A DNA stretch of 48,775 nt, taken from a bacterium (GTDB taxonomy: Bacteria > Patescibacteriota > Minisyncoccia > Minisyncoccales > UBA10102). The notes below the pieces were generated by a model, which was not told where the DNA came from, ran no database searches, and saw only the letters and a program-made list of their open reading frames with translations. The translations under genes and the position numbers were made by a program. Each line of letters begins with the position of its first letter. Position 1 is the first letter of the stretch. Shown here in pieces: positions 9,064-33,206 of this stretch. The stretch lies in NCBI GenBank assembly GCA_030698665.1, contig JAUYMI010000007.1, positions 1-48,775 on the forward strand, written 5' to 3'.

Positions 9064-10361
9064 TGGATTTTACTCCATACCTACAGATCCTCTGGGACCT
9101 CGTGAAGGACTGGTGGTGGCTGGCTTTGCCGGTTGTGCTTTACAAACCAACCGTGTTTTTGTGGCTGTGGTGGCGCCAAGAGATGTGGATCAACCAGCAG
9201 AGAATGATCGTGCTGGAGATTACGCCTCCCCGCGAGGTCGTAAAACCCATCCGGGCCATGGAGAACGTTTTCTCAGCCCTCTGGCAGGTACACGATCCCC
9301 CGAACCCGAGAGAGAAGTGGTTTGAGGGCAAGGTGCAGATGAGTATCTCTCTGGAGATTGTCTCTGACGGAGGCAAGGTGCATTTTTATATCAGGTGTCC
9401 TGAAGGGAACCGTAACCTTATTGAGTCATCCCTGTATTCCGAGTATCCCAGCATTGAGATTGCCGAGGTGGAGGACTACATCAAGCAGGTCCCCCCGGAC
9501 ATTCCGAACAAGGAGTGGGATCTGTGGGGAACGAACTACAAGCTCCAAAAGCCGGACCCCTATCCCATCAAGACCTACAAGTACTTCTTTGAGGAGTCAG
9601 AGGGTTCAAAGGAGGAAGAGCGCGTGGATCCTCTGTCCAACCTCGTTGAGGGGCTTTCCCATTTCAGGAAAGGGGAAAAGCTGTGGCTGCAGATTGTCAT
9701 CACGCCTATTCTCAACTCAGAGCGGAACTATGTCGCTGAAGGCAAGGCGATTGTGGATAAGCTCGTGAAGCGCCCGGATCCAAAGAAGGGGCCCACGGTG
9801 TTTTCGGATTTGGAAGCCGTAAGCGCCCACCTGGCGACCGGCATACCAAAAACTCAAATGGCAGAGGAGGTACGAGAGTTCATTCCTCCTGAAATGAAGC
9901 TTACTCCGGGCGAGCGTCTCACAGTGGCAGCCATTGAAGAGAAGGTCGGGAAGTACGCCTTTCACGCGGTGCCGAGGTTCATCTATCTGGCTCCCCGCGA
10001 CAACTACTACAGCCCGTCTAAGGCGATTGCGATGAGCTACTTTTCTCAGATGAGTACGGCCGACCTCAACGGATTCGGTCCTTTGCGCCCGACCTTAACG
10101 AAGGTCCACACCATTTTGACCTGGTTTCTGGACCGGAGGCGGGTATACATTCGCAAGAGGCGTCTGTTGAGAAACTACGTGCGGCGTCTTCCGCCGTTCT
10201 TCCCAGTCAACACGCTCAAAGGAACCATTCTGCTCAACATTGAGGAGTTGGCGACGATGTTTCACTTCCCGGGCCAGATTGTGGCTCCGGGTGCCGGCTG
10301 GCCGAGAGTTGAGACCAAGAAGGGAGGGGCTCCGAGGGAGCTTCCCATGGAAGAAGAATAA
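9063..10361 (+). CDS. Membrane-anchored hypothetical protein, partner of the downstream VirD4/TraD-like ATPase
   Basis: 432 aa. ATG shares 1 nt with the upstream TAA. Trp-rich N-terminal TM segment; C-terminal ..LNIEELATMFHFPG.. resembles the segment preceding the ATPase domain in fused coupling-protein-like proteins (from memory, not verified). Confidence 0.6.
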   Translation: MDFTPYLQILWDLVKDWWWLALPVVLYKPTVFLWLWWRQEMWINQQRMIVLEITPPREVVKPIRAMENVFSALWQVHDPPNPREKWFEGKVQMSISLEIVSDGGKVHFYIRCPEGNRNLIESSLYSEYPSIEIAEVEDYIKQVPPDIPNKEWDLWGTNYKLQKPDPYPIKTYKYFFEESEGSKEEERVDPLSNLVEGLSHFRKGEKLWLQIVITPILNSERNYVAEGKAIVDKLVKRPDPKKGPTVFSDLEAVSAHLATGIPKTQMAEEVREFIPPEMKLTPGERLTVAAIEEKVGKYAFHAVPRFIYLAPRDNYYSPSKAIAMSYFSQMSTADLNGFGPLRPTLTKVHTILTWFLDRRRVYIRKRRLLRNYVRRLPPFFPVNTLKGTILLNIEELATMFHFPGQIVAPGAGWPRVETKKGGAPRELPMEEE

Positions 10362-10364
10362 GAT

Positions 10365-12041
10365 ATGGCTGAAATCAACTTTTTCGGATACACAACCTTT
10401 CGCAACCAGCGGAGGAAGTTTGGCATTAAGATTGATGACCGGAGAAGACACGTGTACGTGATGGGGAAGACCGGCATGGGCAAGACAGCTATGCTAGAGA
10501 ACATGGCCGAACAAGACATCACGGCCGGCCACGGTGTGGGCTTCATTGATCCGCACGGGGAAGCTGCAGAAAAGCTCTTGGACTACATTCCGGCTTCCCG
10601 CGTGGATGACGTCATCTATTTCAATCCTGCCGACATGGCGCATCCCATCGCCTTCAACGTCATGGAGCAGGTGGCTCCCGAGTACCGGCACCTGGTCGCT
10701 TCGGGTTTAATGTCGGTTTTCAAGAAGATTTGGCCTGACGTTTGGTCAGCTCGTATGGAGTACATTTTAAACAACGTGATCTTGGCGCTTTTAGAGTATC
10801 CGGGAGCCACACTCCTCGGGATCAACCGCATGCTGTCTGACCGCGCGTATCGAGAGGAGGTGATCAGTAAGCTCACGGACCCCATCATCAAGGCGTTCTG
10901 GGTGCAGGAGTACGCGAGGTACACGGAGCGCTATGAGGTGGAGGCGACGGCCGCCATTCAAAACAAAGTCGGTCAGTTCGTTTCAAACCCTCTCATACGA
11001 AACATCGTGGGGCAGACGAGATCCGCCATTAATATGAGGGAAATCATGGACGGGGAGAAGGTCCTCATAGCCAACATTTCCAAGGGCCGGGTCGGGGAGG
11101 ATAACTCGCGCCTCCTGGGAGCCCTGCTCATCACCAAGCTTCAGCTTGCGGCCATGTCGCGCGTGGACATTCCAGAGCAGGAGCGCAAGGACTTCTTTTT
11201 GTACATTGACGAGTTCCAGAACTTTGCCTCAGAGTCCTTCGTGAACATTCTTTCAGAAGCCAGAAAATACCGGCTGGATCTCATTTTGGGGCACCAGTAC
11301 ATCGCTCAGTTAGACGAGACAGTGCGGGATGCCGTATTCGGAAACGTGGGGACCATGGTTGCTTTCCGCGTGGGAGCCGAGGACGCAGAGTGGCTCGAGC
11401 GGGAGTTTTCTCCCGAGTTTACGGCTCAGGATTTGGTCAACCTTGGCAAGTACAACGTGTACTTGAAGCTCATGATTGACGGCCTGGCGGGAGCTCCCTT
11501 TTCAGCTGAGACCCTGCTTCCGCTTCCTGAGCCCGAAAACTCCCAGAAGGATCATATCATTCAGGCTTCAAGGCAGCGCTACGGCACCCCCCAGAGCGAG
11601 GTGGAGGAGGCGATTAGCGATTGGTCGCTCATGAGGGAAGCTACCTCAGCACAGCCGCCAAGGGCGGCTCCTCCTCGCCCGTCTTCTGTCGCTAGCGGGG
11701 AAACTTTGTATGACGCTATCTGTTCTTCGTGCGGCAAGCCCACGAAGGTGGTCTTTCCTCCCGACGGCAAGCGGCCCACGTACTGCAAGTCCTGCCGCAA
11801 GAAGCAAAAGCGCTCACAAGAACAGGTGAAGGGACCGGCTCAGCCAATGTCGCTGAAGGATGCCTTGGGCGCAAAGCCTGTCTTCTTCCATCCTTCAAAG
11901 GCGCAGGAGGCACGCGAGGGAAGCTCTGGAAATGCCGAACTCAGACAGGTACTACAAGAGTCCCTGAAGCAGACCTCGGAAAAGAGCAAAGAGAAGGGAG
12001 AGATTGTCCCCGGCCAGACTATACGCTTTGAGCATGAATGA
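10365..12041 (+). CDS. VirD4/TraD/TraG-like (type IV coupling-protein family) P-loop ATPase with a C-terminal zinc ribbon
   Basis: 558 aa. Walker A GKTGMGKT, Walker B FFLYIDEFQNF, then LGHQYIAQL..GNVGTMVAFRVG typical of the TraD/TraG C-terminal region. Tail CSSCGKPTKVVFPPDGKRPTYCKSCRKK. Confidence 0.8.
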   Translation: MAEINFFGYTTFRNQRRKFGIKIDDRRRHVYVMGKTGMGKTAMLENMAEQDITAGHGVGFIDPHGEAAEKLLDYIPASRVDDVIYFNPADMAHPIAFNVMEQVAPEYRHLVASGLMSVFKKIWPDVWSARMEYILNNVILALLEYPGATLLGINRMLSDRAYREEVISKLTDPIIKAFWVQEYARYTERYEVEATAAIQNKVGQFVSNPLIRNIVGQTRSAINMREIMDGEKVLIANISKGRVGEDNSRLLGALLITKLQLAAMSRVDIPEQERKDFFLYIDEFQNFASESFVNILSEARKYRLDLILGHQYIAQLDETVRDAVFGNVGTMVAFRVGAEDAEWLEREFSPEFTAQDLVNLGKYNVYLKLMIDGLAGAPFSAETLLPLPEPENSQKDHIIQASRQRYGTPQSEVEEAISDWSLMREATSAQPPRAAPPRPSSVASGETLYDAICSSCGKPTKVVFPPDGKRPTYCKSCRKKQKRSQEQVKGPAQPMSLKDALGAKPVFFHPSKAQEAREGSSGNAELRQVLQESLKQTSEKSKEKGEIVPGQTIRFEHE

Positions 12042-14709: not shown

Positions 14710-15102
14710 CGTCAAGCTGTATGGCAGTCGCTCTCGCGTTCTCAGAACGTGGGAGAGGAAGGTCCGAACACTACTTCCCGTCAGAAGAACGGGTCTAAAA
14801 GGGTAGCGGGTAACACCCGTCCGCAGTAATGCGAGAGGTGCGAGCAGAGACGCTGAGGCAAGCGATTGCCGAGGCCCTTGCCAGAGTGGCAAGGTGAGCT
14901 CCGGGAGTAATCCTGGAGGTGAAACGGCTAAATCCTTATCCGAGTGCAAGAGCAAGCCAGGGAATCAGCTTCCATGTTGAAGCCCTGTGAAAAGTAGCTC
15001 GCTGGAGCCTGAGGGTAACCTCAGGCCAAGACAGATGATTGCCGCTCTGTCCTCGCGAGGGGGCAGAGTACAGAATTCGGCCTATATTACAGCTTGGCCG
15101 GG
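14710..15102 (+). ncRNA. rnpB: RNase P RNA, bacterial type A
   Basis: P4 strands GAGAGGAAGGUCCGAAC (about 14753-14769) and ACAGAAUUCGGCCUAUA (15070-15086). P1 pairs AAGCUGU (14714-14720) with ACAGCUU (15089-15095). No credible ORF on this strand. Confidence 0.85.
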
Positions 15103-19149: not shown

Positions 19150-19220
19150 GCGGGTGTAACACAGTGGCAGTGTGCTTGCTTCCCAAGCAAGATACGCGAG
19201 TTCGATTCTCGTCACCCGCT
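19150..19220 (+). tRNA. tRNA-Gly (anticodon CCC)
   Basis: Hand-folded cloverleaf. Acceptor GCGGGTG/CACCCGC, D stem ACAC/GTGT, anticodon stem CTTGC/GCAAG with loop TTCCCAA, T arm GCGAG-TTCGATT-CTCGT. CCA is not encoded. Confidence 0.9.
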
Positions 19221-19230
19221 CAAGGAGCGC

Positions 19231-19304
19231 GCCGATGTAGCTTAGTGGTAAAGCAATGGTTTCGTAAACCATGGACGGCAGTTCGATTCTGCCCGTCGGC
19301 TCCA
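19231..19304 (+). tRNA. tRNA-Thr (anticodon CGU), CCA encoded
   Basis: Acceptor GCCGATG/CGTCGGC (one G-U pair), D stem GCTT/AAGC, anticodon stem ATGGT/ACCAT with loop TTCGTAA, T arm GGCAG-TTCGATT-CTGCC, then T-CCA. Confidence 0.9.
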
Positions 19305-19910: not shown

Positions 19911-19918
19911 GTTTGGTT

Positions 19919-19949
19919 TCTCGCTTCCAACAGAATATTGGAAGCGAGA
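19919..19949 (+). terminator. Perfect 11 bp stem hairpin (terminator or regulatory element)
   Basis: TCTCGCTTCCA (19919-19929), 9 nt loop, TGGAAGCGAGA (19939-19949). No downstream T tract. It sits 15 nt before ATG 19964. Confidence 0.4.
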
Positions 19950-19963
19950 GGCGAGATTTAAAT

Positions 19964-21466
19964 ATGAACGCTATGACGGAAAAATTTAAAATTTGGTATT
20001 TGTATATAACGGTTTTTGCGACTGGAGCGGCAATTTTAATCATTGAAATTTTAGGAACAAGAGTCATCTCTCCCTTCTACGGCACAACTATTTTTGTTTG
20101 GTCTTCGCTTATCATCGTTACGTTGAGCGCGCTTGCTTTGGGATATTGGTTAGGAGGGAAAATAGCGGATAGGCGGCCGGATGTTAGAATTTTTTATTCT
20201 CTTGTTTTAACGGCAGGCATCGCCACCTCGCTTATTATGAAAATAGATCAGCCGATACTTGTTTTTGCCGATCGGTTTGGATTTCAATTTGGTCCTCTGG
20301 TTGCGACATTTATTCTTTTTTCTGTTCCTCTGTTTTTACTTGGTGCATTGACTCCGTTTATTGTTCGTCTTCGGATGAAATTGCCTGAAAGGGCAGGCGA
20401 ATCGTCGGGCAATATTTTTGCCATTGCGACACTTGGATCGCTTGCTGGAGCTCTCTTGGCAGGGTTTGTTCTGATGCCGAGATTTTCTTTATCCGCCATT
20501 TTTTTCTTTATAGCAGGATTTCTTATAATAATCGCGTTCGCGGGTCTTCTCATGGAAAAGCAGTTTGCAAAAAATCCAACAAGAATCCTTTTTCTATTGC
20601 TCGCTTTCGGTTTTTTTGCGTTTCCGACACTGCGCTATGCGGAAGCAACGACAAATAATTTTGAGGTGCTTTACGCAGAACCAAATTTTAATAGCGACCT
20701 AAAAATAGTGAAGGTAGGCGAAAATATATGCATAGCTATGGACGGCGCGCTGCAGACGTGCAAATCAACGGGAAGTAATGGGCAGTTATTTTCCTATTTT
20801 GAGGAGTTGAAAAGCATCGTAAGCGAAAAAACGTACGGGGATATTCTTATTTTGGGCTCTGGAGGCGGCGCAATGCTGACGCTTTTTGCTCCAGATCAGC
20901 GTCTTGACGCGGTTGAAATAAACCCAAAGATGGTTGTTTTGGGAGAGCAGCGCCTTGGATTTAAAGCGGGACCAAATCAGAGTATCGTTATAGATGACGC
21001 GCGCAATTTTTTGCGAAAGACAGATAAAAAATATGATTTGGTTATCATGGACGTGTCTAAAGGATTTACTATTCCAAGCCATCTTTTTGCCAAAGAATAT
21101 TTTGAGATTTTAGCAAGTCATTTGAACCAGAACGGCGTTTTGGCAATAAACTTTTTTGGCCGCACAGAACCAGAAGACACGCTGACCGCGTCGGTAGTAA
21201 AAACCCTACAAACCATTTTTCCCAACACGGCTGTTGCGGCGCCGGATATTGGTTTGCAGAACTTGCTCATTTTTGCTTCATTTAGCGATTTGAGTCCAGT
21301 TGTTTCTTCACTGGCGACATACAGGGAAGCAAAACTAAACGCCAAAGACGGCATCGTATTCACGGATGACAAAAATCTTTCAGAAACACTGATTTTGCCC
21401 AATCTGGAAACCCTGCGGAACAGTTTAAAAGGCATCGGCGGTTTTAAACTTCTTTTTGCCAATTAA
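19964..21466 (+). CDS. Fused polytopic membrane domain / spermidine synthase-like SAM-dependent transferase
   Basis: ORF 19913..21466 with ATG at 19964. About 7 N-terminal TM helices, then ILILGSGGGAML..DAVEINPKMV..DDARNFL..YDLVIMDV (spermine/spermidine synthase fold). Confidence 0.8.
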   Translation: MNAMTEKFKIWYLYITVFATGAAILIIEILGTRVISPFYGTTIFVWSSLIIVTLSALALGYWLGGKIADRRPDVRIFYSLVLTAGIATSLIMKIDQPILVFADRFGFQFGPLVATFILFSVPLFLLGALTPFIVRLRMKLPERAGESSGNIFAIATLGSLAGALLAGFVLMPRFSLSAIFFFIAGFLIIIAFAGLLMEKQFAKNPTRILFLLLAFGFFAFPTLRYAEATTNNFEVLYAEPNFNSDLKIVKVGENICIAMDGALQTCKSTGSNGQLFSYFEELKSIVSEKTYGDILILGSGGGAMLTLFAPDQRLDAVEINPKMVVLGEQRLGFKAGPNQSIVIDDARNFLRKTDKKYDLVIMDVSKGFTIPSHLFAKEYFEILASHLNQNGVLAINFFGRTEPEDTLTASVVKTLQTIFPNTAVAAPDIGLQNLLIFASFSDLSPVVSSLATYREAKLNAKDGIVFTDDKNLSETLILPNLETLRNSLKGIGGFKLLFAN

Positions 21467-21471
21467 AGATT

Positions 21472-23151
21472 ATGCGTACAATTTGCAAAAAAAATATTAT
21501 CACCCTGCTTATTGCGGCAGCAGTATTTGGAGGAATGATTTTTTGGGCTAATCCTGTTTTTGCGGCGGGTACATTCACCACCAATCAAAGCCATTTTCAG
21601 TTTAAGGGCGACACCGGCGGAGAAACAGCTACGGACTGGCTTGCGGCTCAAGACGCTAATCTTAGTAGATTGACTAACAGTAATTTCCGTGTCCGCATCC
21701 ATTTTTATGAATCTGGCAATGTTACTGGTTCGGTAACCCCTCTTTTGGAATACAAACTAGCCTCTGGCAGCGCCTGTACCGATACAACAGGATGGACAAC
21801 CATTACTACCAGCACCACAAACGCGTTTGCCCTTGTTGATTCAGCTAATTTTACTGAACCGGTCGTAACCACCGAACAGTTATCAAGCCAGGGCGGCGTA
21901 ACGTTCACGGCCGGAGAACTTCTGGACCAAACCAACCCGGGTTCTTCTGTTGCCATCGGTCCAAAAAATGAAACTGAATACGTTTGGAATATTAAAGCGA
22001 CCGATAGCGCGTCTGCAACCGCTTACATTTTTCGGGTCAGCAATAACGGCACTAACTTAACAAATTATAATGTCTGCCCGCAGGTTACCGTTCTTGTTCC
22101 ACCTGATTTAACTTGGGCAACCGGCGCGGCTGATTTTGAAATTTTTACGTCCAGTTCGCTCACATGGGATGCCGGTGGTCCGGCAGTGTGTTCGGGAACT
22201 CTTACCGACACCAATGCCGATACAATTTCTTGCTCAAGCGGTTCTGTCGCCAACTCAACGCAATATAGGGTGCAGGCGGTTTTGAAGAATGTCGGTGGCA
22301 TAGCAAGGATGATAAGCACACCTGAATATGTTGACCATAAAAATGTCAAAGCCGGCTGGGCAGGAACCAATCCGACTTTAGGGACTTGCGGGTTTAACGA
22401 TTTTGGGTTGGACGATGATGTTAGTGTTGTTTGCATCCTCGCTTACGTTGGCAATGATGTTAGAATAACAAATGAACCTCCAATTACCCCTGACAATGTA
22501 CTAATTAGCACAGGTGAAACCGAGGGCTTTATGTATTTGATTACCACTGACAGCGATGTTCCGTCTTCTGACTCCACAAGCTATATGGACACTTCAATTG
22601 ATGATATAATACAAGATTCAAGCAAAATTACGATTACCGGCTCGGCCGCCGGGCCGACTCTTACTTTCAGTATCAGTGACAATGCAATCGGCTTTAGCAA
22701 CCTTGATAGCGCAAATGAAAGATGGGCTACTGGAAGCGGTTCTGGGAGCCCGACCGAAACCCCGGCCCACACTTTAACCGCCTCCACCAACGCCACAAAC
22801 GGATACACCATTACCGTAAACGGAACTACCCTTGCATCCACTGGCACGCCAAGCCATACCATCACTGCCATTGGGGCTTCTGCGGCTAACGTTACAACAG
22901 GAAATGGCACAGAGCAGTTTGGCATACGATTAACAGCTTCAGGGACTGGAACTCCCAGCTCTCCTTATAATGGGGCTACCAATATGTATGCCTTAGATAC
23001 TGCCGCCTTTCCTGATGCAATTGCTACGGGCGCTGGAGATGGCAGCTCCACAATCTATTCTGTTTTTTACGCGGCAAACATTGCCGCCACAACGGAAGCG
23101 CATACGGATTACACAGCTTCTCTCACCTATGTTGCCACGGGAAATTTCTAA
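21472..23151 (+). CDS. Secreted surface protein, paralog A; C-terminal module of about 164 aa shared with 23233..24342
   Basis: Signal peptide ..ANPVFA/AG; Thr/Ser/Asn-rich. The C-terminal module (from about 22657) aligns with the next gene, and the last 19 aa are identical (TEAHTDYTASLTYVATGNF). Confidence 0.75.
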   Translation: MRTICKKNIITLLIAAAVFGGMIFWANPVFAAGTFTTNQSHFQFKGDTGGETATDWLAAQDANLSRLTNSNFRVRIHFYESGNVTGSVTPLLEYKLASGSACTDTTGWTTITTSTTNAFALVDSANFTEPVVTTEQLSSQGGVTFTAGELLDQTNPGSSVAIGPKNETEYVWNIKATDSASATAYIFRVSNNGTNLTNYNVCPQVTVLVPPDLTWATGAADFEIFTSSSLTWDAGGPAVCSGTLTDTNADTISCSSGSVANSTQYRVQAVLKNVGGIARMISTPEYVDHKNVKAGWAGTNPTLGTCGFNDFGLDDDVSVVCILAYVGNDVRITNEPPITPDNVLISTGETEGFMYLITTDSDVPSSDSTSYMDTSIDDIIQDSSKITITGSAAGPTLTFSISDNAIGFSNLDSANERWATGSGSGSPTETPAHTLTASTNATNGYTITVNGTTLASTGTPSHTITAIGASAANVTTGNGTEQFGIRLTASGTGTPSSPYNGATNMYALDTAAFPDAIATGAGDGSSTIYSVFYAANIAATTEAHTDYTASLTYVATGNF

Positions 23152-23232: not shown

Positions 23233-24342
23233 ATGAAAGGTATTCGTTTTGTAACCAGTGTCGGACTTATTTTCTCGCTTCTCTTGGCTTTGTTCGGTCC
23301 GCCTTTCCAGATTGCGCAGGCAGCCGCCTTAACTGGTATGTCTGCCACGTTGTCTACTTTAAAAATAAGCACGGTGGCGAACCAGACCATTCTGTTCACT
23401 CTGTCAGCTACAGGAGGAGGAATAGCCGCCGGTGAAACCATCACATTGACATATGATTCGGACTTTGCCATACCCGTAGCCCTGGACTTTGAAGATATTG
23501 ACGTGAGCACCGACGCTACTCCAGATGGCGTGTGCGATACCGGCGACACCGAATTAACTCTTGCCGCCGCTGCCTCTGGCACAACGTGGGGAGCGATAGA
23601 CACAAGCACCACGGTTATTACCATTACTTCGGGCACGGGCACCATTGCGGCCTCGGTTGAAGTATGCGTTGAGATTGGGACCAATGCTGAATCAGTGATT
23701 ACCGGTATAGAGCGGATAACCAATGCCACCACTGCCGCTTCTCGCAACCTTACTCTTGGAGGCACCAATGGCGACACGGGAACCATTGTCATTACCACGG
23801 TCACAGATGACGTAGTGGTGGCAACCGCAACGGTAGCAGCCAGCTTGAGTTTCTCCATTTCAGACAACGATATTTTCTTTGGCACTTTGAGTACCAGCGC
23901 GAGCAAGTGGGCAGACAACACGGCAGACGGAAATGCCACGGCAGCCGTAGCCCATACCCTTATTGCGGGAACCAACAGCACGAGCGGATACACCATAACC
24001 GTGCAAGGGGCCACGCTCACTTCTACTGGCACGCCGGGTGACACCATTACTGCCATGGGCACGGAAGCCGTGCTTGACCCCTCGGGAGACGTAGAGCAGT
24101 TTGGCTTGCGCATTACGGCTGCGGGAGGTTCCGGAGCGGTTGACACAAACTATGACAACACTCCCGCTGACACCTACTTTTATGGAGCAAACGCGACCAC
24201 AACAGACGTTATCGCCACATCAGCGGGCGTCTCCGCTGACACAACATACTCTTTGTATTACGCCGCCAACATTGCTTCCAGTACTGAAGCCCACACGGAC
24301 TACACAGCTTCCCTCACCTACGTTGCAACGGGGAACTTTTAG
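23233..24342 (+). CDS. Secreted surface protein, paralog B, same C-terminal module
   Basis: Signal peptide ..FQIAQA/AA. The module starts at about 23842 (SLSFSISDNDIFFG..GYTITVQG..EQFGLRITA..YYAANIA..TEAHTDYTASLTYVATGNF). Confidence 0.75.
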   Translation: MKGIRFVTSVGLIFSLLLALFGPPFQIAQAAALTGMSATLSTLKISTVANQTILFTLSATGGGIAAGETITLTYDSDFAIPVALDFEDIDVSTDATPDGVCDTGDTELTLAAAASGTTWGAIDTSTTVITITSGTGTIAASVEVCVEIGTNAESVITGIERITNATTAASRNLTLGGTNGDTGTIVITTVTDDVVVATATVAASLSFSISDNDIFFGTLSTSASKWADNTADGNATAAVAHTLIAGTNSTSGYTITVQGATLTSTGTPGDTITAMGTEAVLDPSGDVEQFGLRITAAGGSGAVDTNYDNTPADTYFYGANATTTDVIATSAGVSADTTYSLYYAANIASSTEAHTDYTASLTYVATGNF

Positions 24343-24396: not shown

Positions 24397-25473
24397 ATGA
24401 AATTTTTTGCAACCGTAGGCCTTTTTCTGCTTGCCGCCGTCATTGTACTGCCCGGTACAGCAGAAGCTCTTACTCTCTCTCCCGTACGCGAGGAGATTAC
24501 AGCGGACCCTGGTGAAACGGTGCATGGGGAACTTTTACTGATTAATGAGCAGGAGGGAACTAAGACCTTTTATTCAACTTTCGGGAACTTTGAAGCTTCA
24601 GGCGAATCGGGAACCCCGAGCTTTGTGGAGGGAAGAGAGGGGCTCGCGACTTGGATTGAGGCCGTGTCCTCGGTTACTCTTTCGCAGAATGAACAATTAG
24701 AGGTTCCCTATACCATACGGATACCTAAAAATGCCGCTCCCGGAGGCCACTTTGCCGCCATTTTTTGGAGCACTGTTCCTCCCAGAAGTCAAAGTGAGGG
24801 CGTTTCCATTGGCGCTAAAGTTGGTTCTTTGATTTTGCTTCGTGTGTCAGGAGAAATTCCGGAAGGAGGCGGAGTGCTGGAGTTTACAACAAAGGGCAAG
24901 CAGGGCTTTTTTAGCTCTCTGCCTATTGCTTTGGAGTACCGCTTCCAGAACGGGGGCGGGGACCGCTTAAAGCCGGAGGGGACGATAAGGATTACGAACC
25001 TCATTGGTTTTACCTCGGCTACCTTTAACGCGAACCCGGACGACGGGAACATTTTGCCTCAGTCCGTGAGAAAGTTTGATGTTCTTTGGGAGAAGGGAAA
25101 GGACGAAACAAAAAAGCTCCAAGGCGAGGGAGAGAAAACAGGAGGATTTTTTGGGGGATTGAAACAAGAATGGAGCAATATTGCATTTGGCAGATACACG
25201 GCTCATCTTGACGTAGTATATGGAGCGGAAGGGGAACGGGCACAGGCAAGCACGAGCTTCTTTGTTGTTCCTTGGAGGATTTTGAGCATACTCATCGTTA
25301 TACTCGCCATTCTGTCCTTTCTGTTTTCCTTGGGAATTAAACGTTACAACAAGTGGGTGACGCAAAAGGCGATTTCCCAGTTTCAGATGATGAACGCGGG
25401 GCGTACCGCACCAAGCAAGGCAATATCTACTGTGGCTCAAGCTTCAAAAAAACGCAGGCTTAAAACTCTATAA
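24397..25473 (+). CDS. Signal-peptide Ig-fold protein with a C-terminal TM anchor (DUF916/DUF3324-like architecture)
   Basis: Signal peptide ..GTAEA/LT, beta-rich domains (PGETVHGELLLINE.., IPKNAAPGGHFAAIFW) and a C-terminal helix ILSILIVILAILSFLFSLGI with a basic tail. Confidence 0.7.
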   Translation: MKFFATVGLFLLAAVIVLPGTAEALTLSPVREEITADPGETVHGELLLINEQEGTKTFYSTFGNFEASGESGTPSFVEGREGLATWIEAVSSVTLSQNEQLEVPYTIRIPKNAAPGGHFAAIFWSTVPPRSQSEGVSIGAKVGSLILLRVSGEIPEGGGVLEFTTKGKQGFFSSLPIALEYRFQNGGGDRLKPEGTIRITNLIGFTSATFNANPDDGNILPQSVRKFDVLWEKGKDETKKLQGEGEKTGGFFGGLKQEWSNIAFGRYTAHLDVVYGAEGERAQASTSFFVVPWRILSILIVILAILSFLFSLGIKRYNKWVTQKAISQFQMMNAGRTAPSKAISTVAQASKKRRLKTL

Positions 25474-25481
25474 AGGAGCGA

Positions 25482-26528
25482 ATGAGCAAATGGATATTCT
25501 CAATTTTCATATTATCCTTTGCCAGCGGGTTTCCCTTCTTGATTTCCCAAGCGCAAGAAACGGTAGAGGTGACTCTTTCAGCCGCCGTTGAGGGTTGCGG
25601 AGACGAAGTTATTCAAAGCGGCGAAGCATGCGACGGCTCTAATTTGAACGGCAAAAGCTGTTCCACTCAAGGATTTTCTGCTGGAACTTTAAGTTGTAAC
25701 TCCAACTGCACTTTTAATACTTCGGCTTGCACTTCCGGCGGAGGTGGGGGTGGCGGAGGAGGAGGCGGTGGTGGCGGCGGATATGTCGCGCCAGTCACGA
25801 GCGCTGTTTTTTCCGGCCACGCGTATCCTAAAAGCACGGTAACGCTTCTGAAAGACGCGCAGATTGCCGCAACAACCATCGCCGGCGCGGATGCTATTTT
25901 TCAAGTCAGTGTTTCCGGCATTTCGGCTGGAAATTATATTTTCTCTGTCTACAGCGAAGATGACAAAGGTGTACGGTCTTCTCTTTTGACTTTTCCTATA
26001 AGCGTAACATCGGGCGCCACTACCAATGTGAGCGGCATTTTTATTGCGCCCACCATTGTGGTAGATAAAAGCGAAGTGAAACGGGGCGACAACATCGCAA
26101 TTTTTGGGCAAAGCACGCCAAATTCCGAGATTACGATAGCGGTAAATTCAGACGAGGAGTTTTTTGCGAAAACGCCCGCCGACAAGGATGGTGTATATCT
26201 GTATAACTTTGACACTTCGCCGCTTGCGACGGAGCAGCATTTTACTCGATCAAAAAGCGCGTACAGCGGCGGAATCAGTTCTTTTAGCAAGTCCATAAGT
26301 TTTCTCGTTGGCACAAAAAATATTGCGGCCGAATTTCCAAAGGCGGCCGCGGAAGGCGATTTGAACGGTGATGGCCGCGTTAACCTCATTGATTTTTCCA
26401 TCGCCGCGTATTGGTATAAAAGGCCGATTTCAGCAGAGTTTATGCAGAAAGAAGCCGAGCGCTTAAATGGCGATGGCAAGGTTGACTTGGTGGACTTTAG
26501 CATCATGGCCTTTTACTGGACCGGATAA
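25482..26528 (+). CDS. Secreted dockerin-domain protein with an N-terminal Cys-rich repeat and a poly-Gly linker
   Basis: AAGGAG upstream. Signal peptide; CGDEVIQSGEACDG..C..C..C Cys-rich repeat; 15 consecutive Gly. Two dockerin type I calcium loops: DLNGDGRVNLID (26358-26393) and LNGDGKVDLVD (26463-26495). Confidence 0.8.
   Translation: MSKWIFSIFILSFASGFPFLISQAQETVEVTLSAAVEGCGDEVIQSGEACDGSNLNGKSCSTQGFSAGTLSCNSNCTFNTSACTSGGGGGGGGGGGGGGGYVAPVTSAVFSGHAYPKSTVTLLKDAQIAATTIAGADAIFQVSVSGISAGNYIFSVYSEDDKGVRSSLLTFPISVTSGATTNVSGIFIAPTIVVDKSEVKRGDNIAIFGQSTPNSEITIAVNSDEEFFAKTPADKDGVYLYNFDTSPLATEQHFTRSKSAYSGGISSFSKSISFLVGTKNIAAEFPKAAAEGDLNGDGRVNLIDFSIAAYWYKRPISAEFMQKEAERLNGDGKVDLVDFSIMAFYWTG
25737..25781 (+). 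repeat. Low-complexity tract of 15 consecutive Gly codons
   Basis: ggc gga ggt ggg ggt ggc gga gga gga ggc ggt ggt ggc ggc gga. Mixed synonymous codons, so it is not a simple nucleotide repeat. Confidence 0.95.
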
Positions 26529-26529
26529 T

Positions 26530-27441
26530 ATGAAGAACCTTCTCTTGTCGCTGGGCGTTCTTTCCTTGCTCGGGTACGCAGAACCCGCGTTCGGAGCGGC
26601 TCTTGTTTTGCAATCCGAACGGATGGAAGTCGGGGTGGGGCAGGAGGTGAGTGTTCTCCTCATGCTTGATTCACAGGACGAGATTCTGAACGCGGTGGAA
26701 GGAGCGGTGGTCTTCCCCCAGGAGGTCCTGCAGTTTGTCTCCGCCCGGGATGGAGACTCCGTGGTGAACCTTTGGGTGGAAAGGCCCGCTCTTGCAGGAG
26801 ACACTGTTTTCTTCTCTGGCGTAATGCCCGGCGGTTTTTCCGGAGTGCTCAGCCCCTATTACAGGGGAGGGCGGCCAGGCAAGCTTTTTGAGATGACCTT
26901 TGTGGCAAAGGAAGAAGGAGAGGCAGTGTTGTTGCTTCAAGGGGCGCGGGCGCTGCTGCACGACGGGGAGGGCACTTTGGCAGACCTTGAGGCGCCGCCC
27001 CTGCGACTTTCGGTCGTTCAGGAAACGCCCGAGGAGGCGGTGGCAGCTCCGCAGGATGTTGTGGCGCCCGAACCCTTTACCCCTGTTATCTCGCAAGATG
27101 CCAATCTCTTTGACGGGAAATGGTTTGTGGTCTTCGTGACGCAGGACAAAGGAAGCGGCGTCGCGCGCTACGAGGTGGCAGAACGTAGGGGAGAGGCGAT
27201 ACAAAACTACGCTCGACTTTCCTGGCGCGAGGCCGAAAGCCCTTATCTGTTGCGCGACCAGGAGCTGAAAAGTACGGTGTACGTGAAGGTTGTCGATTGG
27301 GCCGGCAACGAACGGACTGCCATGGCGCAGGCTCTCAACCCGTTCCCGTGGTATGAGAAATACTTGGTTTGGATTATACTAATAGTAGTAATCCTCGTAT
27401 TCCTCTTATGGGGCTTCCTAGTGCGTTACAGGCCAAATTAA
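26530..27441 (+). CDS. Cohesin-domain protein with a C-terminal membrane anchor
   Basis: ORF 26467..27441; ATG at 26530 lies 1 nt after the upstream stop. Signal peptide ..AEPAFG/AA. Cohesin-like LVLQSERMEVGVGQEVSVLLMLDS..LNAVEGAVVFPQEVLQFVS. C-terminal helix YLVWIILIVVILVFLLWGFLV. Confidence 0.7.
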   Translation: MKNLLLSLGVLSLLGYAEPAFGAALVLQSERMEVGVGQEVSVLLMLDSQDEILNAVEGAVVFPQEVLQFVSARDGDSVVNLWVERPALAGDTVFFSGVMPGGFSGVLSPYYRGGRPGKLFEMTFVAKEEGEAVLLLQGARALLHDGEGTLADLEAPPLRLSVVQETPEEAVAAPQDVVAPEPFTPVISQDANLFDGKWFVVFVTQDKGSGVARYEVAERRGEAIQNYARLSWREAESPYLLRDQELKSTVYVKVVDWAGNERTAMAQALNPFPWYEKYLVWIILIVVILVFLLWGFLVRYRPN

Positions 27442-27446
27442 AAAGG

Positions 27447-29180
27447 ATGCGATTCCCCAAGCCAAAGCTCTTATTGCTTCTTGTCTGTTTTCTGTTTGCG
27501 CCCGGTCTTGTTTCAGCCGCCACTCTGTACGTTACTCCTTCCACGGGATCATTTACCGTAGGGGAAATCTTTTCTGTGCAGGTGTCTGCCTCAAGCGCGG
27601 ATCAAGCTATGAACGCCGCATCGGGAGTGATTTCATTTCCGAGCGATAAGTTAGAGGTAACTTCGCTTTCCAAAACCAGTTCCATTATTTCCTTGTGGGT
27701 GCAAGAACCTTCGTACTCAAATAATGCGGGAACCGTCACGTTTGAGGGGATTGTGCCCAATCCCGGGTTTACTGGTTCTGTCGGGCGACTGCTTTCAGTC
27801 ACTTTTCGGGTAAAAGCGGGCGGCGTTGCTTCCCTCGCCTTTGTCTCAGGCAGCGTTTTGGCAAATGACGGTTTGGGCACAAATATCTTAACTGGCCTCA
27901 GCGGGGCAGCATTTTCTCTTGGGAGTGTGGTCACTCCTTCACCAACTCCAACACCAGCGCCCCAGTCCTCCCGGGTTGGAGTTCCTTCAGCTCCGGTGGT
28001 GCGTTCTTCCACGCACCCTGACTCAGAAAAATGGTACGCAAGCAGCAATGCCGTGTTTTCCTGGGACGTGCCCTCTGATGTTGATGCGGTTCGTTTGCTT
28101 GTAGGGGAATCCGCCAGCAGCGTGCCGACCATCGTGTATGCGCCGCCTGTCAGCTCTCGGGACCTTTCTGACATCGCCCTGGCTGACGGCGTGTGGTACT
28201 TCCATGTTCAGCTGGGGAACGCCAGCGGGTACGGGGGCACCTCGCATTTCAGGTTCCAGATTGACAAGACAAAGCCCCAGTACTTTACCCTTGAGGAACA
28301 ATCAAGGGAGGACGCAACCTTTCCCAGGGTTTCCTTTGCCGTGGACGCCGCAGACCAAATCTCCGGCATTGACCACTACGAGTTCCAGATTGACGAGGGC
28401 GAAAGCGTGGCGTGGAGCGATCCGGGAAACCACATCTACGAGACGCTCGCCCTTCTTCCCGGTAAACACCTGGTGATTGCAAAGGCGGTGGATAAGGCGG
28501 GAAACTACCTTGTGGATTCTGTTACCGTTGAGATTGAAGCCATAGAGTCACCGGTGCTCACCTCCTACCCCAGTTTGGTAAAGACAGGAGAGGCGTTTTT
28601 GGTGAAGGGAACTACGTATCCTGGAGGTGAGGTTACCTTACTGTTCCAGAGGGATAAAGAAGACGCTGTGTCTGCCGCGGTGAGCGCGGACAAGGCAGGG
28701 AACTTTGAGATATTTCTTGAGGAAGGCCTGAAGGATTCTGGTAGCTACAAGATGTGGGCCTTTGTATCTGACGAGCGGGGAGCGGTGAGTTTGCCCACCC
28801 AAAAGCTTTCTCTCAAAGTTGAGCGTTCACCGCTCATTGAGCTAGGTTCTTGGGCAACCACCGTGCTCGCCGTGATGATTCCCATTGTTGCCCTTCTTCT
28901 CGTTCTTATGGGGCTGTTGTGGTATGGATTTCAGAAGTTCGTACTCTGGAAGAGAAGAATCAGAAAAGAGGTGAAGGAAGCAGACCAGGCCCTCCATAAG
29001 GCAATCGGCCTGCTCAAAAAAGACATGGCAAGCCAGATTAAGCTTTTGGAGAAGGCCAAAACAAAACGCCAGCTTACCAAAGAAGAGGAAAAGATAATTA
29101 GGCAACTCAAAAAAGATTTGGATGACACGGAGAAATTTGTGAAAAAGGAAATCAAGGATATTGAAAAGGAAGTAAAATAA
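27447..29180 (+). CDS. Large cohesin-domain surface protein with a C-terminal TM anchor and a K/E-rich coiled-coil tail
   Basis: ORF 27369..29180 with ATG at 27447. Signal peptide ..GLVSA/AT. LYVTPSTGSFTVGEIFSVQVSASS..ASGVISFPSDKLEVTSL.. is a typical cohesin N-terminus. Ig-like repeats, TM helix VLAVMIPIVALLLVLMGLLWYGF, then KEVKEADQALHKAIGLLKKD... Confidence 0.75.
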   Translation: MRFPKPKLLLLLVCFLFAPGLVSAATLYVTPSTGSFTVGEIFSVQVSASSADQAMNAASGVISFPSDKLEVTSLSKTSSIISLWVQEPSYSNNAGTVTFEGIVPNPGFTGSVGRLLSVTFRVKAGGVASLAFVSGSVLANDGLGTNILTGLSGAAFSLGSVVTPSPTPTPAPQSSRVGVPSAPVVRSSTHPDSEKWYASSNAVFSWDVPSDVDAVRLLVGESASSVPTIVYAPPVSSRDLSDIALADGVWYFHVQLGNASGYGGTSHFRFQIDKTKPQYFTLEEQSREDATFPRVSFAVDAADQISGIDHYEFQIDEGESVAWSDPGNHIYETLALLPGKHLVIAKAVDKAGNYLVDSVTVEIEAIESPVLTSYPSLVKTGEAFLVKGTTYPGGEVTLLFQRDKEDAVSAAVSADKAGNFEIFLEEGLKDSGSYKMWAFVSDERGAVSLPTQKLSLKVERSPLIELGSWATTVLAVMIPIVALLLVLMGLLWYGFQKFVLWKRRIRKEVKEADQALHKAIGLLKKDMASQIKLLEKAKTKRQLTKEEEKIIRQLKKDLDDTEKFVKKEIKDIEKEVK

Positions 29181-29188
29181 CCAGCAGG

Positions 29189-29220
29189 ACAGCAGGGGAG
29201 TCCCTTCTGCTGTTTTGTCT
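29189..29220 (+). terminator. Rho-independent terminator ending the surface locus
   Basis: ACAGCAG (29189-29195) pairs with CTGCTGT (29207-29213), followed by TTTTGTCTTT. Confidence 0.55.
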
Positions 29221-29254: not shown

Positions 29255-30344
29255 ATGTCCGACGTTTCAGAAAAGATCCAGGAGTTAGAAGCAAAACTCC
29301 TCCACCTGGAGGACTGTCTTTGACTTTGAAGGAAAGAAAAAGAGGATAGCTGAGATTGAAAAGGAAGCAGCCACGGGAGAGTTCTGGCGGGACAAAGAGC
29401 GCTCAGTGAGGATGAGCCAGGAGGTAGCTGCGTTGAAAGAAGAGGTTGCGGGGATAGAGAAGCTCGGGAAGGAAGTGAGTGATCTCAGGGAGCTTGCCGG
29501 GGTTGCACAGGGAGAAGAGCTGGAATCGGAAGTGGAGAAGGTCAGAGAGCATCTCAGCAAGGAAGAGATCAAGGTGTTCCTTTCTGCAAAGTACGACGCT
29601 GGCAACGCAATCCTTACCGTGACGGCCGGGGCCGGCGGCCAGGACGCCCAGGACTGGGCCACCATACTTTTGCGCATGTACGAGCGGTACTCAGAGCACA
29701 AGGGATGGAGGTCTCGCATAGTGAGTCAGTCATTTGGGGACCCGGGGCCCGAGAGCAGGATCGGAACCAAGCAGGCGAGCTTGGAGATTCAGGGAAGGTA
29801 CGCCTACGGGCTTTTGAGACGGGAGAACGGGATTCATCGCTTGGTGCGCATCTCACCCTTTTCAGCAAAGTCCCTGCGCCACACCTCCTTTGCCTCAGTG
29901 GAGGTCATTCCGGAGATTGATACCACGGTGGAGAAAATTGAGGTCAGGCCGGACGATTTGCAGATTGATACGGCAAAGTCCTCGGGTCCCGGGGGACAGA
30001 ACGTGAACAAGCGGGAGACCGCAATCAGGATCACCCACATTCCCACGGGAATCATCGCGTCTTCCCAGGCCGAGCGTTCCCAGGCCCAGAACAGGGAGCG
30101 TGCCATGCAGATGCTACTTTCCAAGCTCTATCGGGTAGAGGAAGCCAAGAAGGAAGAGGAGGTGAGGAAGGCCAAGGGTGTAAAAAAGGCGAATGAGTGG
30201 GGGAGTCAGATTCGCTCGTACGTTCTGCATCCTTACACCATGGTGAAGGACCTGAGGACGGGAGAAGAAACCTCCCAGGCCTCCCAGGTGTTGGATGGGG
30301 ACTTAGACCAATTTATCGAAGCTGAGATTCGACTCAATGATTAG
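29255..30344 (+). CDS. prfB: Peptide chain release factor 2, expressed through a programmed +1 frameshift
   Basis: Frame 0 reads MSDVSEKIQELEAKLLHLEDCL, then TGA at 29321-29323. The +1 frame from 29322 joins ORF 29406..30344, which carries SPF (RISPFSA) and GGQ (SGPGGQNVNK). Confidence 0.93.
29308..29324 (+). promoter_or_regulatory. RF2 autoregulatory frameshift site
   Basis: Internal SD-like GGAGG (29308-29312), 5 nt, then the slippery CTT TGA C (29318-29324). Confidence 0.9.
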
Positions 30345-31936: not shown

Positions 31937-32007
31937 TGCCGGGTCGTCTAGTGGTAGGACCCATGGTTCTGGACCATGGTACCTAGGTTCGAATCCTAGC
32001 CCGGCAG
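31937..32007 (+). tRNA. tRNA-Gln (anticodon CUG)
   Basis: Acceptor TGCCGGG/CCCGGCA (U1-A72), D stem GTCT/GGAC, anticodon stem CATGG/CCATG with loop TTCTGGA, T arm CTAGG-TTCGAAT-CCTAG, discriminator G. Confidence 0.9.
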
Positions 32008-32047
32008 CCGTCATATGCTAAGTCAAGTGACCGAGACGCCTAGAGAA

Positions 32048-32335: not shown

Positions 32336-32587
32336 ATGGGAACATTAAACGTAAGAATTGATAAAAACATTAAGGCAAAAGCAGGGAAAACACTTTCTGC
32401 TTTAGGTCTGGATACCTCAACTGCGGTGCGGCTTTTTCTCTATCAAGTTGTTGCGGAGAAGGGACTTCCTTTTATTCCGACACGAAATCCTGCGACTATC
32501 CGTGCGCAATGGGACAAGGAAGTTGCCAGGGCTAAAAAGAATAGTCGTCGCTATAGAACTGCCCAAGACGCGTTAGCTGACCTTTAG
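32336..32587 (+). CDS. dinJ: Type II antitoxin, RelB/DinJ family
   Basis: 83 aa. LNVRIDKNIKAKAGKTLSALGLDTSTAVRLFLYQVVAEKGLPF is the DinJ N-terminal RHH pattern. Sits 1 nt upstream of a YafQ-like ORF. Confidence 0.8.
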   Translation: MGTLNVRIDKNIKAKAGKTLSALGLDTSTAVRLFLYQVVAEKGLPFIPTRNPATIRAQWDKEVARAKKNSRRYRTAQDALADL

Positions 32588-32588
32588 G

Positions 32589-32873
32589 ATGTACAGAATT
32601 ATCCGTACGAAGGCTTTTGAGCGTTCGTACGGACGATTAAAACAGTCAGGCGTCAAAGAGTCGATTTTCAATGATATAAAGAATACCATTGATACCCTGG
32701 CATCGGGAAAATCGTTATCGGCAAAACATCGCGACCACAAGCTCACCGGACACTTTCACGGATATCGTGAATGTCACGTGCGGCCAAATCTACTTCTTGT
32801 ATATCAGATTGACCAAAGCAACCTTGTTCTCATATTAGTTGATATAGGGTCGCATCCTTATCTCTTTGGTTAA
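32589..32873 (+). CDS. yafQ: Type II toxin, YafQ family mRNA interferase
   Basis: 94 aa. HRDHKLTGHFHGYRECHVRPNLLLVYQI..LVLILVDIGSHPYLF matches the YafQ signature (H.L.G....ECHI.PD.LLIY...GSH..LF). Confidence 0.85.
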   Translation: MYRIIRTKAFERSYGRLKQSGVKESIFNDIKNTIDTLASGKSLSAKHRDHKLTGHFHGYRECHVRPNLLLVYQIDQSNLVLILVDIGSHPYLFG

Positions 32874-32948: not shown

Positions 32949-33206
32949 ATGAATACAACATTGACCATTAAAACAAACAAAAAGCTGAGAAACGCGGCAA
33001 AGAAAACGGCAGAAGAGATGGGAGTACCTCTTACCACTGTTGTGAACGCTATGCTCAAGCAGTTTGTGCGCGATAAAGAGATTATTCTTTCTGTCCGTAC
33101 CCCAAACGCGGAGACGCGGCGTGCAATGGGTGAAGCACGGGAGCGTAAAAATATTGAGGCGTTTGAATCTTTGGGTCAGTGGAAGAAGCGTATGCAGTTG
33201 CGATAA
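32949..33206 (+). CDS. Type II antitoxin, RelB/DinJ-like (second copy)
   Basis: 85 aa. LTIKTNKKLRNAAKKTAEEMGVPLTTVVNAMLKQFV. Sits 6 nt upstream of a YafQ-like ORF. Confidence 0.7.
   Translation: MNTTLTIKTNKKLRNAAKKTAEEMGVPLTTVVNAMLKQFVRDKEIILSVRTPNAETRRAMGEARERKNIEAFESLGQWKKRMQLR

Follow-up and report, generated by a model that had tools for sequence, protein, structure and literature searches.

We analysed a 48,775-nt stretch of DNA (contig JAUYMI010000007.1 of assembly GCA_030698665.1, positions 1 to 48,775 of the forward strand, hereafter the window) from a bacterium of the phylum Patescibacteriota. Between 25482 and 29180 it carries three adjacent genes, here called A, B and C, which encode a secreted protein with a dockerin and two membrane-anchored proteins with cohesins. 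Our results suggest that the three probably constitute a non-cellulosomal cohesin-dockerin tethering module of the cell envelope in the Candidate Phyla Radiation (CPR), in which A is predicted to bind one or both anchors. The genes and features of the locus are as follows (aa, amino acids; Ig, immunoglobulin).

19913..21466: fused major facilitator superfamily (MFS)/spermidine-synthase gene (NF037959, E = 5.6e-51)
21472..23151, + strand: larger Pam-type pilin-like gene, 559 aa, with a C-terminal domain of the NF058581 type (NCBIfam NF058581)
23233..24342, + strand: Pam-type pilin-like gene, 369 aa (NCBIfam NF058581, CPR_Pam_pilin_C)
24397..25473, + strand: gene G, 358 aa, WxLIP- or PamC/D-like membrane-anchored Ig protein (family matches to PF06030; architecture)
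25482..26528, + strand: gene A, 348 aa, secreted dockerin-bearing adaptor (Pfam Dockerin_1, family profile, hydropathy)
26530..27441, + strand: gene B, 303 aa, short membrane anchor (AlphaFold2 and Foldseek, homologues)
27447..29180, + strand: gene C, 577 aa, long membrane anchor (Pfam Cohesin, hhalign, hydropathy)
29194..29214, + strand: terminator-like hairpin with a T-run, just 3' of the C stop codon (consensus scan)

An AGGAG ribosome-binding site lies 4 nt ahead of the ATG of A. The TAA of A ends at 26528 and the ATG of B begins at 26530, leaving 1 nt, and the TAA of B ends at 27441 with the ATG of C at 27447, leaving 5 nt; the coordinates, reading frames and gaps of an earlier first-pass annotation of the three genes are thus correct, and gaps this short suggest translational coupling. 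The longest open reading frames (ORFs) start at 26467 and 27369 and overlap the preceding genes; these starts lack homologue support because the family consensus begins at an MK.. start. The hairpin is, on weak evidence, the probable end of the operon, and a scan of the region for promoter and terminator consensus sites returned a number of sites at the chance level. Upstream, the gaps in the series from the MFS/spermidine-synthase gene through the two pilin-like genes and G to A are 5, 81, 54 and 8 nt. A, B and C make up the 3' half of a larger and compactly arranged cluster of two Pam-type pilin-like genes, G, A, B and C, and the trio is not the self-contained system that the first-pass annotation had suggested.

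The product of gene A is divided as follows (residues, with window coordinates in brackets; + strand).

1-24: signal peptide
27-37 (25560-25592): short beta-strand-like N-terminus
39-83 (25596-25730): 6-Cys module, the six Cys being invariant in the family alignment
86-100 (25737-25781): poly-Gly, 15 residues
about 107-187: Ig-like (Big_6-like) domain (Pfam Big_6, 27.0 bits against a cut-off of 27.6)
about 205-284: second beta domain (domain borders past residue 190 are tentative)
292-348 (26355-26525): type I dockerin, with invariant dockerin residues in the family alignment

The C-terminus of A consists of two F-hand repeats, DLNGDGRVNLIDFSIAAYWYKR and RLNGDGKVDLVDFSIMAFYWTG. Pfam Dockerin_1 (PF00404) matches residues 292-342 with 26.8 bits, above the gathering cut-off of 22.9 (E = 5.9e-6), and a profile of the A family (42 members) matches solved dockerins, led by 2y3n_B (E = 3.7e-4) and followed by 4fl4_A, 5nrm_B and 1daq. 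Many A homologues carry a precomputed PF00404 annotation. The two type I repeats of the first-pass annotation are thereby confirmed. In repeat 1, DLNGDGRVNLID, Asp or Asn calcium ligands occupy all five positions (1, 3, 5, 9 and 12); in repeat 2, RLNGDGKVDLVD, ligands stand at 3, 5, 9 and 12, and position 1 is Arg here and Asp in many homologues. The repeats, each of about 22 residues, are arranged in tandem and have 13 of 22 residues in common, with near-identical helix residues. Internal symmetry of the two repeats is the basis of dual-binding dockerins. Hydropathy analysis of A shows the signal peptide and no transmembrane (TM) segment, and Pfam finds no catalytic domain. An AlphaFold2 model of A (42 homologues) reached a pLDDT of 60 and wrongly drew the dockerin as strands; the alignment lacked diversity, and we set the model aside.

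More than 2,200 homologues of A were found, of which the best 120 are all 60-78% identical to it over the full length, and the name 'dockerin type I repeat-containing protein' has been given to some. A has a near-invariant core, made up of the poly-Gly hinge, both beta domains and the dockerin, that is 60-78% identical across CPR classes, and only the N-terminal head differs among lineages: a strand with the 6-Cys module, as in the window, a head of about 190 aa that we call t2 (EDYTSSNF... followed by a domain like fibronectin type III (FnIII)), and others. Conservation of this degree is more in keeping with a core component of the envelope than with a rapidly evolving adhesin. A candidate orthologue of A, the essential dockerin protein SEML1_0315 of Southlakia (Wang et al. 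2023), was rejected: it has 927 aa and a different gene context.

The product of gene B is a short membrane anchor (+ strand).

1-23: signal peptide
23-163 (26596-27018): cohesin-fold domain
186-266 (27085-27327): Ig-like second domain, highly conserved
278-299 (27361-27426): TM helix (280-298 by hydropathy), followed by four to five cytoplasmic residues

B itself has no sequence match in Pfam or the PDB, only 3 of 54 B relatives match Pfam Cohesin, and the family profile finds cohesins of Ruminococcus flavefaciens weakly (E = 0.02-0.06). The predicted structure is much more informative. AlphaFold2, run on an alignment of 54 sequences, gave a model with a pLDDT of 93.5, in which a beta-sandwich (23-163), a beta domain (186-266) and a helix (278-299) follow one another; the sandwich has the nine strands and jelly-roll topology of cohesins. 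In a Foldseek search of this model against the PDB, about 45 of the top 50 matches are cohesins. The first is the cohesin+FnIII double module 2w1n of Clostridium perfringens (E = 3e-11), whose two-domain arrangement is mirrored by the cohesin and Ig-like pair of B, and the best single-domain superpositions are on 2xdh (TM-score 0.81, root-mean-square deviation 2.7) and 2vo8 (TM-score 0.78), both non-cellulosomal cohesins. As far as a predicted structure can decide it, the N-terminal domain of B is settled as a cohesin fold. Where the source gives an organism, the 209 homologues of B are from CPR bacteria; a few bear the name 'cohesin domain-containing protein'. Conservation in the family is highest on strands b3 and b6 and in the second domain.

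Gene C encodes the longer anchor (+ strand).

N-terminus: signal peptide (hydropathy)
about 29-160: cohesin (Pfam match at 35-133, 27549-27845)
between the cohesin and the Ig-like domains: linker rich in Pro and Thr
298-362: Ig-like domain, OmpL47-type or Big_13-like (weak matches to Big_13 and OmpL47-barrel)
385-452: Ig-like domain, Big_6-like (weak match to Big_6)
473-491 (28863-28919): TM segment (hydropathy)
494-577 (28926-29177): K/E-rich helical cytoplasmic tail of 84 aa, 50% of them K, E, R or D

The cohesin of C is visible at the sequence level. Pfam Cohesin (PF00963) matches its first 200 aa with E = 8.2e-5, and 41 of 47 C relatives match at E<=0.01, the best at 1e-9. B and C are homologous in their N-terminal domains (30% identity and E = 7e-18 by BLASTP; 99.9% probability and E = 5e-36 by hhalign). 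The Pfam models that the first-pass annotation had named as its check thus gave a mixed result: the dockerin of A was detected above the cut-off, the cohesin of C scored 23.3 bits against a gathering cut-off of 24.1, and B was missed. The architecture it had given for both anchors, a signal peptide, an N-terminal cohesin and a single C-terminal TM helix, nevertheless stands, B by AlphaFold2 and Foldseek, C by Pfam and hhalign, with hydropathy for the TM segments. The charged cytoplasmic tail that it had noted on the larger anchor is likewise present, and the tail has hydrophobic residues at helical a/d-like spacing, as judged by composition and spacing. Searches of B, C and the pilin-like sequences against PDB sequences were empty or at noise level.

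Four motifs are common to B and C: NA..G, LWV..P, F.G..P.GF.G and DG.GT. They fall on strands b3, b5 and b6 and on the b8-b9 loop. In type I complexes such as 1OHZ, the canonical dockerin-binding face of the cohesin is the 8-3-6-5 sheet, which includes the strands that carry these motifs. The positions of the shared motifs are consistent with the canonical dockerin interface.

Related loci were surveyed by tblastn, blastp and hidden Markov model (HMM) labelling with the window proteins, which gave 87 loci (84 non-redundant); these are not phylogenetically independent, and the taxon labels of some bins are unreliable. In a scan of one genome per GTDB species, at least 478 species have an A relative. 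All but a few of the best 80 A loci are labelled as CPR or unspecifically ('Patescibacteria group bacterium', 'bacterium'), and the few genomes labelled otherwise are probably mis-binned. Among these 80, the Parcubacteria/Paceibacterota labels comprise Wolfe-, Kaiser-, Campbell-, Zambryski-, Nomura-, Taylor-, Portnoy-, Azam-, Niyogi-, Staskawicz- and Colwellbacteria, and further labels are Uhr-, Magasanik-, Komeili-, Veblen- and Torokbacteria, Minisyncoccia (L032 in our survey) and auto-assigned 'Saccharibacteria' bins.

Of the loci, 80 extend at least 900 nt downstream of A, and in every one of them a B-type cohesin gene follows A. Under a strict distance rule 75 of the 80 pass, and the other five have a longest-ORF start that overlaps A. 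Two or three cohesin genes lie within 3.5 kb in 66 of 75 loci. Outside the A family, no ORF within 9 kb on either side carries a dockerin motif in the 87 loci, and A is the only dockerin carrier in the whole window, which sets a fixed ratio of one dockerin to two cohesins. The unit is thus one dockerin carrier with, usually, two membrane cohesins, and the order A, B, C recurs far beyond chance. That this synteny is kept in CPR genomes speaks for A-B-C as a functional unit.

The A-B junction itself looks like a hot spot for insertions. In one locus (L007/L018 in our survey, about 9641-9940) a GIY-YIG ORF separates A from B, and small ORFs lie between them in L012 and L029. Many B homologues, including P0025, P0027-29, P0040, P0060, P0066 and P0075, are called as fusions with an N-terminal module of the GxxExxY (PF13366) or 23S-rRNA-intervening-sequence type (PF05635/PF22296).

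Both upstream pilin-like proteins match NF058581 ('CPR Pam pilus system pilin subunit') over their C-terminal 140 or so residues, the 559-aa protein with E = 2.5e-14 and 53.6 bits and the 369-aa protein with E = 3.9e-13 and 49.7 bits, against a cut-off of 55. The matches are significant and point to homology with Pam pilins just under the curated cut-off. The 369-aa protein is laid out as a signal peptide, an N-terminal beta domain, a linker strand (..VVVATATVAAS) and the C-terminal Pam pilin domain, and the motif of linker and C-terminal domain is kept in relatives. Pfam finds no WxL domain in the pilin-like proteins or their C-termini, and a PDB sequence search did not detect the PamA and PamB structures. 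G has a signal peptide, one or more Ig-like ectodomains, a C-terminal TM helix (residues 295-313) and a basic tail by hydropathy. PF06030 WxLIP_PGBD (formerly DUF916) is matched by 20 of 38 G relatives (best 1.6e-4) and not by the G of the window; the top PDB profile match of the G family is EfmWxLIP1 (E = 0.1).

These genes recur beside the trio. As in the window, G is the gene directly 5' of A in 46 of 73 loci; 24 of 55 have pilin-like genes no more than 4 kb upstream of A, and about 21 loci keep the complete order pilin-pilin-G-A-B-C. The head of A varies in step with G: the Cys-type head occurs with G in 40 of 44 loci and the t2 head in 0 of 11, which points to a functional link, on the evidence of gene content, between the A head and the G and pilin genes.

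Other genes occur in the same surroundings. Some loci have short one-domain variants of G, with small secreted proteins (about 155-210 aa, about 175 aa) upstream (L007 7153-7674; L010 2635-3099; L021 37-567; L032 1235-1867); their N-termini, just past the signal peptide (TDSVSATVTVMYS and similar), closely resemble the pilin donor linker, and they are possible single-domain pilins with an N-terminal donor strand. Giant surface proteins of 1,400-5,100 aa, some with a Peptidase_S74 tail-fibre-like C-terminus, are often encoded just upstream of the module (L001 1-5204; L005 3015-8438; L070 959-7906; L008, L081 and others). A tail-fibre-like protein and an MFS transporter have both been reported near pam operons (Troman et al. 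2026, 10.64898/2026.03.03.709456), and the MFS/spermidine-synthase gene of the window directly precedes the first pilin gene.

We then propose a model for the module. By their sequences, A, B and C are exported by Sec signal peptides. By sequence and structure prediction, B and C would be held in the cytoplasmic membrane by one C-terminal TM helix with the N-terminus outside, as type I membrane proteins that each present one cohesin at the distal tip, at two different heights. The cohesin of B would sit on a short stalk of one Ig-like domain, and that of C on a long stalk made of the Pro/Thr-rich linker and about three Ig-like domains, with the 84-aa charged helical tail in the cytoplasm. A would leave the membrane, and the cohesin of B, of C or of both would capture it by the calcium-binding dockerin at its C-terminus. 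The poly-Gly hinge could let the N-terminal head swing outward, the head being exchangeable on a near-invariant core. It is tempting to speculate that the symmetric dockerin and the two cohesins allow alternative binding, or the simultaneous bridging of B and C. Gene context suggests, less strongly, that the module works with G and pilins of the Pam type, which assemble by donor-strand exchange, and that it probably joins a fibre or fibre base to the membrane; that it is A which couples a Pam-like fibre to the membrane is a weakly supported proposal.

Several observations weigh against this model. The cohesin of B is invisible to Pfam and that of C falls 0.8 bit short of the cut-off, and many conserved cohesin residues are Gly or Pro, which may be structural and not part of an interface. 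The dockerin of the window has Arg at calcium-ligand position 1 of repeat 2. The trio is also present where neither G nor pilins are recognisable (the 11 t2 loci and others), and the link to a fibre is therefore not obligatory. The correlation between head type and G was counted without correction for phylogeny, and related loci share ancestry.

How the module relates to the neighbouring genes is best approached from the Pam pilus of Ca. Mycosynbacter amalyticus. There, PamC and PamD are described as PapD-like chaperones that, unusually, keep a TM helix at the C-terminus. PamR, a terminator held in the membrane, consists of an N-terminal strand, two FnIII domains and a TM helix, and its strand is proposed to complete the last pilin (Troman et al.). 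By analogy, A might terminate a Pam-type pilus as its adaptor: the last pilin would receive the N-terminal strand of A in its open C-terminal domain, and the dockerin of A would plug into B and C. On this tentative proposal PamR would in effect be split into two halves, perhaps held together non-covalently by cohesin and dockerin. A cohesin-dockerin plug might then be the membrane anchor of a donor-strand-exchange (Pam- or WxL-like) fibre in CPR bacteria of the Parcubacteria type, with A capping the fibre base, a possibility that we hold with similar reserve. The conserved cluster order and the co-variation of head and G speak for such a pilus anchor, as does the fact that no PamR-like gene was recognised at the locus. 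The domain layouts also compare well with PamR, A having an N-terminal strand, two beta domains and a dockerin, and B a cohesin, an Ig-like domain and a TM helix. On the other side, the published pam operon contains neither cohesin nor dockerin, and the trio occurs without detectable pilins or G.

The N-terminal strand of A bears on the same question. Its consensus, [ST]Vx[IV][ST]Ax[VI], resembles the conserved core of the pilin donor linker, QVAVSATV, and an 8-residue matrix of the pilin linker scores only 1.4% of random 16-residue windows as high as the median of the A family. A 13-residue matrix that includes the flanks gave no enrichment for the A N-terminus, 13% of background ORFs scoring as well. 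The strand is generic, rich in V, T, S and A, and the A homologues are not independent samples; the likeness is suggestive only.

The main rival is a housekeeping envelope scaffold with no link to a fibre, in which A, B and C form, for example, a strut or spacer that spans the wall or S-layer and the pilin genes are mere neighbours. We consider this doubtful. The identity of the A core across CPR classes is unusual for a surface protein, and together with the highly conserved second domain of B it suits such a part; the loci without G or pilins are a sizeable minority, and the trio often lies among housekeeping genes such as lepA, prfB and ftsEX. The frequent adjacency of G to A and the correlation of head type with G argue against a mere neighbourhood, and searches with Pfam and NCBIfam found no wall-binding domain in A, B or C.

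It is unlikely that the cohesin-fold and dockerin-like modules are not mutual partners at all, with the repeats stabilising A through calcium or binding glycans and the cohesin folds binding another ligand. The lack of sequence-level cohesin signatures in B would suit this explanation. Against it, the one dockerin gene strictly adjoins cohesin genes in 80 of 80 informative loci, and C is a cohesin at the sequence level. A miniature cellulosome-like enzyme scaffold for polysaccharide degradation, suggested by the domain names only, is hardly credible, as the first-pass annotation had already argued: Pfam and NCBIfam find no catalytic domain or carbohydrate-binding module in A, B or C, each locus has a single dockerin carrier and each anchor a single cohesin, and no glycoside hydrolases were seen among the neighbours with Pfam labels.

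The tethering module that we favour can be compared with several known systems. Cohesins and dockerins outside cellulosomes form a class surveyed by Peer et al. 2009. Its structurally known members include the GH84C cohesin+FnIII of C. perfringens (2w1n, 2jh2 and 2vo8) and a cohesin of Archaeoglobus fulgidus (2xdh), which share with the present set a single cohesin and a single dockerin outside a cellulosome and among which the B model finds its best superpositions. Unlike in these pairs, the cohesins here belong to proteins that cross the membrane once, the protein with the dockerin is free of enzyme and toxin domains, and the genes form a fixed three-gene operon in hundreds of CPR species that is linked to pilin-like genes. 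Cellulosomes are anchored to the cell surface by OlpB, SdbA and Orf2p of Clostridium thermocellum, which bear S-layer homology (SLH) domains, and by the sortase-anchored ScaE of R. flavefaciens. As with these anchoring scaffoldins, a cohesin on a cell-bound protein would hold a dockerin-bearing partner at the surface; in contrast to them, the anchor here is a C-terminal TM helix and not SLH or sortase, enzymes and multi-cohesin scaffoldins are absent, and C has a cytoplasmic helical tail.

The likeness to the Pam system lies in the upstream genes, which encode the Pam pilin C-terminal domain, and in G, which has the layout of PamC and PamD (signal peptide, Ig-like, C-terminal TM). A PamR-like role of A with B, or of A with C, would be an analogy only. 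A, B and C have no Pam-family match in NCBIfam. Pam pilins are reported mainly from Saccharimonadia and Microgenomatia, and the text of the paper that describes them mentions neither cohesin nor dockerin (Troman et al.). The cluster reported here differs in occurring in lineages labelled Parcubacteria/Paceibacterota, Uhr- and Magasanikbacteria, with pilin scores just under the cut-off.

The WxL clusters of Firmicutes offer a further comparison. WxLIPs (DUF916-DUF3324-TM) are Ig proteins anchored in the membrane, and it is predicted that a hairpin strand of theirs inserts into WxL surface proteins (Hassan et al. 2023, PMC10599100). With these G shares a signal peptide, two Ig-like domains and a TM helix, besides the weak family match to WxLIP_PGBD and EfmWxLIP1, and it is likewise encoded beside surface proteins that, by analogy, it may complement by strand insertion. 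The clusters differ in that the pilin-like proteins here have no detected WxL domain and the WxL clusters have no cohesin-dockerin genes. The combination hints that the Pam and WxL systems are related.

Non-cellulosomal cohesin-dockerin modules are already known from the C. perfringens toxin complexes and from A. fulgidus, and annotation pipelines label some CPR proteins by domain, so that the domain observation alone is ordinary. In the literature on cohesins and dockerins in CPR bacteria we found no description of an A-B-C module. What seems to be new lies at the system level: TM-anchored cohesins, a fixed operon of one dockerin and two cohesins in hundreds of CPR species, and its frequent joining to Pam-type pilin and WxLIP-like genes.

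CPR bacteria, or Patescibacteria, are a large and mostly uncultured share of bacterial diversity and live attached to other cells, and little is understood of how they assemble surface structures and retain them on a wall-poor envelope with a single membrane. In A and its two membrane cohesins we see a concrete candidate for a core tethering device of the envelope. With it, non-cellulosomal cohesin-dockerin pairs, mostly of unknown function, would gain a physiological role, and the pilin-like genes and G upstream would extend the Pam pilus gene set to CPR lineages labelled Parcubacteria/Paceibacterota. Should the cohesin-dockerin plug prove to anchor a fibre, it would be an anchoring mechanism not known from other pilus classes, and the putative cytoplasmic coiled coil of C might couple the fibre to the cell interior. 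A cohesin-dockerin pair so small and highly conserved could, in addition, be of use as an orthogonal protein-assembly tag.

Elsewhere in the window, prfB (release factor 2) follows the module at 29255-30344 with a programmed +1 frameshift of the classical kind: the gene starts with the ATG at 29255, GGAGG precedes the CTT TGA C site at 29318-29324, and the +1 frame runs to 30344. It follows that UGA serves as a genuine stop codon in the source organism. A functional link of the module to FtsEX, prfB or lepA was considered and rejected, as the local synteny is found in only a few loci. The window also holds a class A RNase P RNA (14713-15100, 116 bits), and genes for tRNA-Gly(CCC), tRNA-Thr(CGT) and tRNA-Gln(CTG) lie within 19150-19304 and 31937-32009. 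At 10365-12041 is a homologue of VirD4/TraD-like coupling proteins with a C-terminal CxxC-x17-CxxC domain, which may be part of a Patescibacteria type IV secretion system. Adjacent small ORFs of 83 and 94 aa, together with one of 85 aa (32336-32873; 32949-33206), have the sequence appearance of antitoxin/RelE-type toxin pairs.

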